64,000 nt of DNA from assembly GCF_006345805.1 (NCBI RefSeq), contig NC_042999.1, positions 147,064,001 through 147,128,000 of the forward strand, written 5' to 3'. Below, in pieces: positions 5,031-60,880 of this stretch. The DNA comes from Octopus sinensis. Lineage: Eukaryota. Made by a program: the position numbers and the translations under genes. Each line of letters opens with the position of its first letter. The first letter of the stretch is position 1. Under the pieces are notes generated by a model that saw only the letters and a program-made list of their open reading frames with translations, searched no databases and was not told the DNA's origin.

Positions 5031-5593
5031 ATAATTTAGGGTATCTAAGAGATACCAACATGCTGGCCACCTGAGAAGATCGGTATTTAAGTAACAATCT
5101 TATCCTTATTTATATAAATTTATATATTTATTTCGTCATTATATTCACTGCGGTGATATTTTGACCATATCGCACGAGGAGTTTTAGGCGGGCAATTTAA
5201 GCTGGTCGTGTGCATACGTGCATATATATGTATGTATACGTTCATATATGTAAGTTTTCGTATGTTATATACATATATTTGTATTTATGTGCTATCTGAG
5301 TATATTCCACTGGTCAGGGCTGAGCATTTCTTATGCAGATCCAGAAATCCGGGATCAGGAATTATCCAGTGATTTTTTTTAGGGGGGCTAGTTTATTTTG
5401 TCTCTTCGTCTTCTCTCTTGGTGTTGTATGAATATTTTATGTGGTTTTCGAGTCAAGTTTTGGCTGCTATTTCTTAGATACCCTGAATTATTATTTTAAT
5501 AATAATTATTACCTTTGAAGGTTTTTGTTCCCATGCTGGCCACTTGATAAGATCAGTATTTAAATAACGATCTTATCCTTATTTATATAAATT
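5031..5593 (+). mobile_element. Non-coding PLE-like element with partial tandem and inverted terminal segments
   Basis: Direct repeat 5059-5120/5532-5593, inverted repeat 5031-5050/5472-5491, degenerate HHR-like motif at ~5305-5362, microsatellite flanks. Confidence 0.55.
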
Positions 5594-5730
5594 TCTCTCT
5601 CTCTCTCTCTCTCTCCTCTCTCTCTATCTATCTATCTATCTATCTATCTATCTATCTATCTATATATATATATATATATATATATATATATAATATATAT
5701 ATATATATATATATATAATATATATATATA

Positions 5731-5920
5731 GTTAATCCAAACAGAAAACACCAAGAGAAAACACAACAACGCAAGGACGTGGAACAAATATAGTATTATT
5801 GGACGCTCAAGAAGGAAGAGAAGGAGGGCTTTACGTTTCGAGCGGAACTCTTCGTCAGAAACATAGGAAAAGGAAATATCCAGAGAAGGGAAGACGGAGG
5901 AAAAAAATCGCCAACGGTAT
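5731..5920 (-). mobile_element. Short HHR-bearing element between (TA)n and (GA)n arrays
   Basis: Homologous to 59951-60181; carries the HHR at 5829-5861. Confidence 0.75.
5829..5861 (-). ncRNA. Minimal type-I hammerhead ribozyme motif
   Basis: Reverse strand TTT-CTGACGA-A-GAG-TTCCG-CTC-GAAAC-GTA-AAG: canonical core, 3-bp stem II, loop-less palindromic stem III (ACGT), weak stem I. Confidence 0.7.
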
Positions 5921-6472
5921 ATACAGAGAGAGAGAGAGAGAGAGAGAGAGAGAGAGAGAGAGAGAGAGAGAGAGAGAGAGAGAGAGAGAGAGAAAGAGAG
6001 AGAGAGAGAGAGAGGGATAGAAACACAGAAACTGAGAAAGAAAGGAAGAAAAGAACGATATAGTTGAATGCTCAAACGCGCGCACAGACATCAATGTATA
6101 TAACAAAAAGCGATAGAAGGGACCTATATATATATATATATATATATATATATATATATGATTCTGTTTTACCTGCATGTATATATGATGCTTATGTATT
6201 TTTGACACTATATGTGGATCTAGCATTTGAAGTTAGTTATATTGAATTGTTTTGCCTTATCCACTTCTTTTCTTTCCTTTTTTCCCTCGTTCTTCTTTAT
6301 CTTCTTCTGCTTCTTCTTCTTTTTATTATTATTATTATTATTATTATTATTATTATTATTATTATTATTATTATTGTTATTGTTATTATTTTCTTCTTCC
6401 TTCTCTTCTTTCTCCTTTTCTTTTTGTTCTTTTTCTACTCTACTACTACTACTACTAGTGGTAGTAGTAGTA

Positions 6473-6774
6473 GTAGTACTACTGCTACTACTACTACTAC
6501 TATACTACTACTACTACTACTACTACTACTACTACTACTACTACTACTACTACAGCTACTTTGTCTTCCCCTTCTTTTCGTCTTCATGACTCTTATCTTC
6601 CTTCTTCCTCCTCCCCTCTCCCCTCTTCAACCTCAGCATCAACATCATCATCCGCAGTAGCTAAAAGAGCCATAGTAGCTGTGGAAATTGCAATGGCAGC
6701 ATGGACAGCAATACAGCAATACGCTCATCTTTATCTCTTTTCAAATCCATTTTCTTATAACTCTTTCCGCTACT
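6473..6774 (+). repeat. Direct duplicate of 4032-4316 (likely donor copy)
   Basis: Near-identical sequence; continuous with the surrounding TTA/CTA microsatellite block. Confidence 0.95.
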
Positions 6775-8301
6775 TTTCTTTCCTTCCTCTTCCCACAAGT
6801 GTTTTCCCCTCTCTCGTCTATATATCTTTTTTCCACTATATCTACCGCCTTTTTTTTTCTAATAACCTTTTCCTTCGGCTTAAATTTATCAACTGCATAT
6901 CTCAACCTTTATATAAGACATACATCAGACCTAGAAGACCTTTCTTTTGTTTACGTGTTTTTTTCTGATGTTGTCTATTCTGTTTATATTTTTATAAAGA
7001 AGATATCAGAAATACAGCCAAGCACAATTTTCTGGTGTTGTTCGTGAAAGTAAATGAAAGTAGAAGCTGAAGTACGTTTTAGAGCAATATTTATAAATAC
7101 ATCTACGAACACATATGACTGGAAATTCAATGGAAAATTTACATGAATCCCTTTTCAATTAAGTCCGCACTGTGTTGGAAATGATACCCCTTGACTTTCT
7201 GAATATCTTTTTTTTTTTGTGGAAAGATGTGAGGAACATTTTGAAACTGATTGCATTCGTTTTCCTCGTATTTAAATCGTCCGGCTGTTTACATTGTGAG
7301 CTCAAAGATACAGAGTCGAGTTTACTTCTCATTCTCTTGGAGTCAATAAACAAGTACCAGTTGAACGCTAAGTTCGATATATTCGATTTTTTTATTTCCT
7401 TCGAACAACTGCTGGTCTTCTGCCAAAATATTAGAAAGAACTTTAACATTTTATAGGTAAATTTTGACGCAAACAGTAACAGAACAGCAGAGAAAATTCG
7501 AAATGAATATTTATTACTTACTGAGTGAGAACCATACTACAGAGCTTGTATCATCGTATTTTACTCAAACTACCGACTTTCATTCATTTTCTTAAAACTA
7601 TGCTTCTTTTACTTTCCACATTTTAAAGTTGAATCTACACAGTACAGACGTAACTGCATATTTTGTCGTTTGACCTGGAATTTTTAACGAAATTTACTAA
7701 GATTTCGTAGTGTTTTTCGTTGTACTGGGCTTTCTCCAAAGCGATGCGCATAACGTCTTAGAAAATTAGAAGTTAATTCTTCCAAATTTTTTTACTGAAT
7801 CTCCATATCTTGCTGCCATTTATTCTCTATTTAATCAATATAGAGCACCACGAACGTGGGCCACTAATAAAGAAACCATGGCTACTTTATCCGAGGGTTA
7901 TATAATTTACTCATTAGTAAAATTATATGTTTCTCGTACAGGACGTTACTAGTTTCTTCAATATGTCAGTTAGTATGGGGTTAGGCTTGATGTCGGGTGT
8001 TTATATAAATTATTTATGATGAAACAATCACTGACGTCATGTCTAGAATTAAGCAGTCAGATAAGCTAAGGATAAAATGAAAACAAAAAAAAAAAAAAAG
8101 AAAACCACGTCTGTTTATACCATAGACAGCAACGAATGCTAATTACTTAGTGTAAGATTTTTGTGATAAATGCGAAAAATATTATTTTTTGTTACTGCTA
8201 GTCAGCAAAACTCTTAGGAATAATATACCTACTCTTCATAGTGGTAAACTTTACCTCCCGACATTTTGCCATTTACCTGAAGGTGTGTCTGAAAAGTCAA
8301 T

Positions 8302-8658
8302 ATGTGTGTGTGTGTGTGTGTGTGTGTGTGTGTGTGTGTTTGTGTGTGTGTGTGTGTGTGTGTGAATGTGTGTGTGAATGTGTGTGTGTGTGAATGTGTG
8401 TGTGAATGTGTGTGTGTGAAAGTGTGTGTGTGTGAATGTGTGAGTGAATGTGTGTGTGTGTATGAATGTGTGAGTGAATATGTGTGTGTGAGTGAATATG
8501 TGTGTGTGAGTGAATGTGTGAGTGAATGTGTGAGTGTATGTAAGTGTGTGTGAGTGAATGTGTGATCGAATGTGTGTGAGTGAGTGTGTGAGTGAATGTG
8601 TGTGAGTGTGTGTGTGAGTGAATGTGTGAATGTATGAATGTGTCAGTGTGTGTGTGTG
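8302..8658. repeat. (GT)n array with interspersed GAA/GA variants
   Basis: Seen directly. Confidence 0.95.
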
Positions 8659-59950: not shown

Positions 59951-60181
59951 TAATTTTAATCCAAACGGGAAACAAAAAAACAACAACAATGGAACAATTA
60001 CGGAACAATTACAGTATTATTATTAATAGGCGCTCAGGAAATGGAAGCAGGGAGGTATGACGTTTCGAGCGGAGCTCTTCGTCGGAAACATAAAGAAGGA
60101 AGAGAGAGGAAAGAAAGATCCCAGAGCGGGCAACAGGGAAAGAGAAAAAAGACGACTGGTGTTTACGAGTTGCACATGGTG
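59951..60181 (-). mobile_element. Short HHR-bearing element between (TA)n arrays
   Basis: Homologous to 5731-5920; reverse strand TTT-CCGACGA-A-GAG-CTCCG-CTC-GAAAC-GTC at ~60058-60088. Confidence 0.75.
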
Positions 60182-60228
60182 ATATATATATATATATATA
60201 TATATATATATATATATATATATATATA

Positions 60229-60335
60229 GGCGCAGGAGTGGGTGTGTGGTAAGTAGCTTGCTTACCAACCACATGGTTCCGGGTTCAGTCCCACTGCGTG
60301 GCATCTTGGGCAAGTGGCTTCTGCTATAGTCTCGG
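60229..60335 (+). mobile_element. SINE family B head, 3'-truncated
   Basis: ggcgcaggagtgggtgtgtggtaagtagcttgc...gggttcagtcccactgcgtggc. Confidence 0.85.
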
Positions 60336-60439
60336 GAGTCAGAGAAAGGCAGAATGCCACTAAAATTTGAAAACTATACAAATATTCCTTTAAAAAAACT
60401 TTTCTTCTAATTTTTCTAAATTTAATTATTTAATCGTTA

Positions 60440-60477
60440 CAGTTGAAAAGGTCTCAAAATGACCGAAACCGGTACTG
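60440..60477 (+). ncRNA. Minimal hammerhead with U3-A8 compensated core
   Basis: CAG-TTGAAAA-GGTC-tcaaaat-GACC-GAAAC-CG-GTA-CTG. Confidence 0.65.
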
Positions 60478-60699
60478 AAATGTTCTTTATAAAATTATTT
60501 TAGCATTTTCTATTTTGACTTGTTTTTCATATATATCAACTCGTGTGTTCCTTTTCACCCTTATACATATATATATATATATATAATATATATATTATAT
60601 ATATATATATATATATTATATATATATATATATATATATATATATAATATATATAATGCACATATCTGTGTGTATACGCAAATATATATATATATAGAG

Positions 60700-60880
60700 A
60701 GAAATTAATATACTGTGAAAAAATAATAAATAACTCGAAGACAAGGTAAAGAAAGAAACAAAGTGTATTAGCTTTACACTCAGGAGAAATAGAATGAAGT
60801 CTTTTACGTCTTGAGAATACGCACTTCTACAGACAGCGTAGATAAGTAGAGAAAAGAGGAAGAACGAAATGTGTGTCAAT
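60700..60880 (-). mobile_element. Degenerate relative of the 5731/59951 HHR element
   Basis: Reverse strand CTGTAGA-AG-TGCGTATT-CTC-AAGAC-GTA-AAAG (60801-60835), in a similar layout beside (TA)n. Confidence 0.45.

Follow-up and report, generated by a model that had tools for sequence, protein, structure and literature searches.

Minimal hammerhead ribozymes (HHRs) are a described component of Penelope-like elements (PLEs). The published ones have a type-I topology with a palindromic 15.2-16.2/loop 3 region, an extra base between positions 9 and 10.1 and a U3-A8 core variant. They occur in thousands per genome, mostly as single copies "probably related to truncated PLEs" and also as opposite-strand pairs 100-700 bp apart; about 4,000 such motifs are given for the coelacanth and about 9,000 for Xenopus (PMC4209133). 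Here we analyse a window of 64 kb from the Octopus sinensis genome (2.72 Gb; contig NC_042999.1, positions 147064001-147128000), which contains many microsatellites and in which ten HHR motifs had been predicted from the letters of the sequence. The octopus motifs share the listed properties, as far as the portions of the literature used here describe them. They differ by stem II inserts of ~67-92 nt in three families (B, C and F), by U4C and A6U cores and by an extra A before GAAA in family G; the supplements of the published work may list such variants.

The endonuclease-bearing (EN+) PLEs of the Neptune and Hydra types (Craig et al. 2021, PMC8557442) are described, in the sections drawn on here, with a C-terminal GIY-YIG endonuclease, a CX2-5CxxC or CxCX5C linker and a DKT motif; their HHRs are canonical, and they insert at (TA)n with tails and with 5' copies in inverted orientation. 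The CxCX5C linker and DKT are marks of Hydra (section 11). All of this is found again in the octopus. What differs are 3' untranslated regions (UTRs) of ~1-2 kb in families A, B and F and a sharp 5' wall in family A, the clade being read here from motifs only. Anolis Poseidon (Frangieh et al. 2024, PMC11167929) and Penelope (Schostak et al. 2008, PMC2377424) resemble the octopus families in their AT-rich targets, in two alternative 3' ends with a tail between them, explained in PMC11167929 by two start sites of the reverse transcriptase (RT), and would do so in a promoter, which in Penelope is internal to the pseudo-long terminal repeat (pLTR; PMC2377424). The literature basis also includes PMC3846280; the consulted part of PMC13282606 mentions neither ribozymes nor hammerheads. 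No description of these ribozymes in cephalopods was found in the literature searched under octopus and cephalopod terms, whose supplements may hold variants or cephalopod families.

In our reading, to which we assign a probability of roughly 0.8, the window contains type-I hammerheads located in the 3' pLTRs of PLEs, which mostly end in (TA)n and likely arose through target-primed reverse transcription with a premature stop, with one family (G) likely being a retrozyme.

Hammerhead motifs of the window and their genomic families

All ten predicted motifs are present, one of them with its true core at 13431 and not at 13472, a position inside the stem II insert. Five of the seven motifs described as good have an intact core. 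Three of these are complete (5829, 14164 and 60440), and in the other two (23369 and 60058) stem I is broken. The remaining two are damaged: 14830 has one stem III mismatch (ACAGCTCT), and in 33264 U16.1 is changed to A and most of the stem II insert is gone. The three motifs called degenerate (5305, with its core at 5310, 13472 and 60801) are decayed members of genuine hammerhead families. The palindromic stem III was confirmed, and instead of at least five unrelated families there are eight.

A shuffle control had been proposed together with the prediction. A strict descriptor (core, stem II, palindromic stem III and a stem I of at least 3 bp) matches the window three times (5858-, 14286-, 60443+), while 150 block shuffles average 0.013 matches; if stem I is dropped, there are five matches against 0.17. 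Since the descriptor was designed after the motifs had been seen, independent support has to come from conservation across genomic copies. Rfam gave no match in the window at gathering score and no hammerhead among the 150 listed of 215 weak matches, which were discarded as microsatellite noise. Minimum-energy folds of single motifs mostly lack the hammerhead shape, as expected for dimer-type motifs, and were not taken as evidence.

The families were defined by genome searches using the best 30 loci each, and are hence biased toward close matches. A core was scored as intact if it read CUGANGA...GAAA...UH or a listed variant, U4C being accepted as allowed. Copies called "complete" below have the core together with all three stems (I, II and the palindromic III).

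Family A (motifs 5829 and 60058): 60 loci, 56 copies parsed, 4 loci unparsed; core intact in 54, complete in 45
Family B (14164 and 14830, an inverted pair): 29 loci, 25 parsed, 4 unparsed; core intact in 22, complete in 18
Family C (33264): 30 loci, 17 parsed, 13 unparsed; core intact in 6, complete in 5
Family D (60440): 29 loci, 28 parsed, 1 unparsed; core intact in 28, complete in 25
Family E (23369): 30 loci, 25 parsed, 5 unparsed; core intact in 23, complete in 16
Family F (13431): 30 loci, 22 parsed, 8 unparsed; core intact in 17, complete in 11
Family G (5305): 56 loci, 37 parsed, 19 unparsed; core intact in 34, complete in 22
Eighth family (60801): core CTGTNGA (A6U) in 15 of 16 parsed copies

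The stems pair in every family with a sequence that differs between families. In family D the change C3U occurs together with G8A in all 28 copies, and the stem II inserts measure ~92 nt in B, ~67 nt in C and ~78 nt in F. Judged from this anatomy, the motifs are minimal type-I hammerheads of the PLE type. Their arrangement in the window is as follows.

5025..5066 (-): family G, short inverted 5' piece, ends at the inner 3' end of the family
5059..5594 (+): partial tandem of family G, retrozyme-like, with a unit of 473 nt (494 nt in locus L215) and a 63-nt direct repeat 5059-5121/5532-5594
5304..5362 (+): family G hammerhead, decayed core CTGGTCA (commonest in the family CTGATGA), stem I of 6 bp, additional A in front of GAAA
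5625..5730 (no strand): (TA)n array common to the G and A copies, which lie tail-to-tail
5731..5919 (-): short pLTR copy of family A (Neptune-type) with hammerhead at 5828-5862, cleavage predicted at 5832/5831
13222..13425 (-): inverted piece of family F carrying a long tail
13423..13825 (+): 3' end of family F (Hydra-type) with hammerhead at 13426-13545, core 13431 with C3A, ~78-nt stem II insert
13826..13963 (no strand): (TA)71 array common to the F and B copies
13964..14567 (-): 3' end of family B (Hydra-type) with hammerhead at 14164-14290, core CCGAAGA, 92-nt stem II insert
14547..15061 (+): family B, inverted partner; hammerhead 14830-14957, stem III mismatch
23300..24197 (-): family E, 3' end, presumably Penelope/Poseidon-type by its motif; endonuclease fragment 23757-24197, hammerhead 23369-23414
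33219..33340 (-): 3' end of family C (probably Hydra-type) with hammerhead at 33264-33315, internal deletion, U16.1A
59953..60182 (-): short pLTR copy from a second subfamily of family A, flanked on both sides by (AT)n arrays; hammerhead 60055-60089, core CCGACGA; 5' end at TCA
60334..60563 (+): family D (Neptune-type, young), 3' end and tail; hammerhead 60440-60477, U3-A8 core TTGAAAA
60752..60836 (-): decayed copy of the eighth family, family core CTGTNGA (A6U)

Coding partners, insertion sites and proposed mechanism

Longer genomic copies of six of the eight families (A-F, C weakly) reach coding sequence for RT and/or a GIY-YIG endonuclease. Copies of family D extend more than 1.5 kb into RT, Cys linker and GIY-YIG. 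Locus L279 has a stop-free RT-endonuclease frame of 521 codons (Pfam GIY-YIG, E 5.7e-6), and the Neptune layout (RT, CX2-5CxxC linker and GIY-YIG collinear with the pLTR) is found there and in L119. In family A, RT (YIDD), CxxC and GIY-YIG lie ~1.1 kb above the pLTR behind a CA-rich UTR (L157 and L276); only the CxxC half of the Neptune linker is visible in these two loci. Six of 42 ribozyme-anchored A copies, taken from 40 stretches among the first places listed (two places already in the set were passed over), have a common upstream sequence of 661-993 nt. Family B is collinear over 2.6 kb in L271 and L272 up to an endonuclease, with CxCX5C in L271, and family F combines RT with DKT and a CxCX5C endonuclease (L190 and L277); judged by eye, the endonucleases of the Hydra-type families lack CCHH. 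The evidence for family C is a weak and broken match to the B and F endonucleases (E 1.5e-5 to 6e-4), while family E contains an endonuclease fragment within the window itself. These motifs suggest that A and D are Neptune-type and B and F Hydra-type, and that C is probably Hydra-type.

Two earlier assignments were given up in the course of this comparison. Family B had been taken for Neptune because of a frame in L036; longer B copies lead to a Hydra-type endonuclease, and the frame (L036/L278) belongs to an unrelated neighbour. Family A had appeared purely non-coding among its 29 best matches, which was overturned by pattern-picked loci that reach coding sequence. One of the A copies adjoins an RT frame of 462 codons (L013:1795-3180, +), which is Hydra-like and belongs to a different family that also inserts at TA.

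As longer copies run into coding sequence, the non-coding copies of the window are best understood as truncation products and not as separate parasite families. Most of the motifs would then be 5'-truncated ends of coding PLEs, in line with the published picture. The original prediction was right that the window copies other than 23369 lack coding sequence. Its view of them as non-autonomous, retrozyme-like PLE parasites does not fit the six families with coding longer copies (C weakly), but survives in part, because family G is retrozyme-like and family A consists mostly of non-coding copies of a fixed length of ~200-215 nt. Likewise, the proposed assignment of each family to coding PLEs succeeded for A-F (for C weakly) and found no partner for G.

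The predicted targeting to (TA)n holds for six families. Where the 3' end was located, a (TA)4 lies no more than 25 nt away from it in 49/56 cases for A (59 loci), 12/24 for B (29), 13/25 for C (29), 25/28 for D (29), 9/19 for F (29) and 20/38 for G (59, duplicates kept), far above the background of 5-6% in flanks and window and of 4.4% in spot samples (60 stretches of 10 kb, 600 kb in all, taken from the 26 largest contigs at round coordinates). It fails for family E, with 0/19 against a background of 9.9%. Families B, D, F and G have two alternative 3' ends and inverted 5' pieces, and the inverted and partial-tandem ends expected for PLEs were borne out. Overall, the copies display the insertion traits of EN+ PLEs, namely fixed 3' ends, an optional tail, variable 5' ends, inverted 5' copies and, except in E, (TA)n.

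According to established PLE biology, the GIY-YIG endonuclease would nick (TA)n, and the RT would start at one of two sites past the ribozyme, giving a short or a tailed end, and copy 5'-ward until it stops early, often leaving an inverted second piece. The start point and the ribozyme are only ~55-300 nt apart, so that a copy need not be long to include the ribozyme. Old (TA)n arrays would in this way gather ends of several families. The ribozymes would cleave as dimers via the palindromic stem III, and single genomic copies are probably mostly inert.

Several observations weigh against the overall reading. Stem changes within families are G-C/G-U shifts alone, with no two-sided compensatory change. 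Pfam assigned no family to five of seven frames and to two of two other frames, apart from one sub-threshold unrelated match, and the clades are assigned by motif and not by a reference tree. Only two of 70 3'-anchored A copies run past -125 from the cleavage site, which is few for simple truncation. The ribozyme of family G has an extra A before GAAA besides its 6-bp stem I. Of 56 distinct G loci (from at least 305 copies), none carries two intact ribozymes, the second core in L256 being mutated.

Abundance, 5' walls and family G

Four strict motifs were found in the spot samples (0-1 in shuffles), which corresponds to one per 150 kb (95% range 59-550 kb) or ~18,000 genome-wide, compared to three in the 64 kb of the window, one per 21 kb. 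Family remnants number 19 + 5 in the spot samples (one per 25 kb) and ten in the window (one per 6.4 kb). The window is therefore ~4-fold (remnants) to 7-fold (strict motifs) richer than the genome, and all these densities are lower bounds, as other families were uncounted. The predicted frequency of one element per 7 kb is correct within the window if dead copies are included, but not for the genome. Exact-pattern counts are 9,611 for the A ribozyme (24-mer), 3,955 for the 3' part of A, 229 for its 5' part, 347 for D and 305 for G, with reversed controls at 0. Measured by the counts available for coelacanth and Xenopus, the scale in the octopus lies within the known range. The eighth family, with its A6U core and a perfect 4-bp stem I, is also abundant (five copies in the 600 kb of spot samples; examples L468:674, L485:8890, L272:865).

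The 5' ends of families A and D are unevenly distributed. A set of 70 A copies was chosen by a single criterion, a pattern located 3' of the cleavage site; it comprises 70 of the first 71 places listed, and two of its members resemble a local duplicate. In this set 57 copies end between -118 and -83 from the cleavage site, 43 of these between -113 and -100, where the A of a TTCA is located at -106; none of the 70 ends within 5 nt of the cleavage site itself. Other A subfamilies, the 60058 type included, stop by eye at the homologous TTCA, and 122 of 132 A copies pass directly into (TA)3 without a unique tail. For family D, 22 of 76 ends among the first places listed (eight places already in the set passed over; both arms of inverted pairs counted, so partly non-independent) fall between -179 and -150 around a TTCA with its A at -172, while 35 extend further and the ends spread beyond -1500. 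The TTCA resembles an initiator. In A and D the wall likely marks where a transcript that starts within the pLTR has its 5' end, and in these two Neptune-type families a run-off transcript from this putative start site would be copied up to TTCA. In five of the 76 D copies the 5' end lies no more than 5 nt from the cleavage site, where 0.8 would be expected (P 0.0016, with this limit chosen after the first 30); the excess could instead reflect a stall at stem I or AT micro-homology. This differs from Anolis Poseidon, for which the part of PMC11167929 considered here describes a ribozyme that could be dispensed with in vitro and the absence of RNA ends from its cleavage site.

A wall common to 57 of 70 copies with two running well past it, the 9,611 exact ribozyme 24-mers, the direct passage into (TA)3 and the promoter precedent in the Penelope pLTR (PMC2377424) would also suit a self-amplifying element of the short interspersed element (SINE) kind, in which the short A copies of ~200-215 nt carry an internal promoter, are transcribed into their own (TA)n flank and are copied in trans by a Neptune enzyme. 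We regard this as possible though doubtful, because the same wall occurs in several subfamilies, each with long members, and because the pLTR of a coding master would yield an identical run-off product. Long and short copies are also interleaved in a tree of 87 A copies (11 label changes), which is weakly supported and cannot decide on short-only clades. Alternatively, the walls may have no relation to a promoter and be hotspots of RT stalling or second-strand priming, at an A hairpin (GGTCA/TGACC) or by TA micro-homology. A 5-bp hairpin overlaps the A wall and the junctions often have A/T letters in common with the flank. This hairpin, however, is weak and not kept in other A subfamilies with the same wall, and the walls of two families that are unrelated both have the A of TTCA at their centre, so that we consider stalling somewhat less probable still than a SINE-like origin. 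A transcript start inside the pLTR of PLEs remains our preferred explanation of the walls.

Family G has a unit of 494 nt (L215) with 31% GC, arranged head-to-tail and closing on itself at the same junction. Arrays of more than one unit, the longest with 893 nt, were found at 21 of 30 best-match loci and at 3 of the 30 loci picked by pattern (two of which belong to the best-match set as well), and inverted 5' pieces at 7/30 and 12/30, respectively. Seven PLE protein queries gave no match in the 60 loci (56 distinct) with their 1.5-kb flanks, and no common outside sequence could be identified among 41 upstream flanks. With its non-coding, head-to-tail unit, GC content, type-I HHR, 6-bp stem I and many monomers, G resembles the animal non-LTR retrozymes as far as these are described in the parts used of Cervera and De la Pena 2020 (PMC7229834) and Li et al. 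2026 (10.64898/2026.07.22.740005). Its unit exceeds the 150-450 nt of the former and is inside the 51-972 nt of the latter. In contrast to these retrozymes, G has arrays of less than two units and PLE-style tails and inverted ends, and no active dimer was found at the sampled loci. Families A-F do not combine the absence of a coding partner in cis with a tandem unit, since their longer copies reach coding sequence. Thus G is likely a new non-LTR retrozyme family, which would be copied from a tandem or circular RNA of ~494 nt by a PLE enzyme acting in trans.

That G is instead the pLTR of a coding PLE outside the sample, or a satellite grown by recombination, appears rather unlikely to us. The sample comprises 56 distinct loci with 1.5-kb flanks and most unbiased copies (27/30) are shorter than one unit, which would agree with such an origin, whereas the self-closing unit, the arrays of up to 893 nt and the dispersed copies, whose 3' ends are fixed and which have TA flanks and 5' pieces in inverted orientation (12/30 unbiased), do not; for the satellite in particular, dispersed copies of one to two units speak against it. 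The opposite view, held by the original prediction, that each family is a non-coding retrozyme parasite of its own, with one element per 7 kb, is very improbable. It accounts for the non-coding window copies save 23369, for G and for the mostly short A copies, but six families are tied to coding sequence (C weakly), with collinear coding copies contradicting it for A, B, D, E and F, the 5' ends of D reach beyond -1500, and the density is lower elsewhere. A combined scheme is tentative: Neptune pLTRs may act as free-standing, ribozyme-bearing SINE-like units with a TTCA start, a ~210-nt RNA copied in trans into (TA)n and some ten thousand or more fixed-length A copies, next to the ~494-nt retrozyme family, with the D ends at the cleavage site (5/76) recording cleavage in vivo.

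Other repeats and significance

The window also contains repeats of other kinds. An element of ~230 nt with terminal inverted repeats and TA flanks, resembling miniature inverted-repeat transposable elements, is located at 59200-59412 (1,845 first-look candidates). Its 3' 117 nt recur inverted at 59800-59917 with 100% identity across a (TA)199, possibly as an assembly fold-back, and the pair 59297-59412/59800-59917 was ruled out as a further ribozyme element because it belongs to this terminal-inverted-repeat element. There are furthermore a near-perfect hairpin of 158 nt (94%; 2290-2447), a 200-nt element with inverted ends (77%; 12958-13157), a 287-nt direct repeat of 98% identity adjoining (TAC)n arrays (4033-4319 and 6492-6777), and a repeat in partial tandems of 169-186 nt (370-932, 17667-18279, 29933-30353 and 43328-43511) which we take to be SINE-like. 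At 43931-46376 (-), 39742-40290 (-) and 42747-43175 (-) there are two frames, one of 498 codons and one of 332, along with a pair of C-terminal fragments bearing zinc knuckles. By their motifs, the frames presumably encode an endonuclease/RT like that of long interspersed elements, and the zinc knuckles would be of the R2/R4 type. The coding fragments at 20425-21404 (-), 62154-62552 (+) and 34227-34757 (+) we assume, again by motif, to be pieces of Tc1/mariner-like transposases and of a Helitron-like helicase.

The class of elements described here is already known, and the catalogue as such adds little to it. What stands out are family G, likely a new retrozyme, and the pattern of 5' walls. 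The families supply natural core variants (U4C, U3-A8, A6U and a bulged A) and stem II inserts of 67-92 nt for ribozyme assays. The fixed 5' walls, as possible marks of transcript starts, and the copies starting at the cleavage site bear on the role of the hammerhead in PLEs and on the formation of PLE ends, and the thousands of natural copies make both patterns testable.

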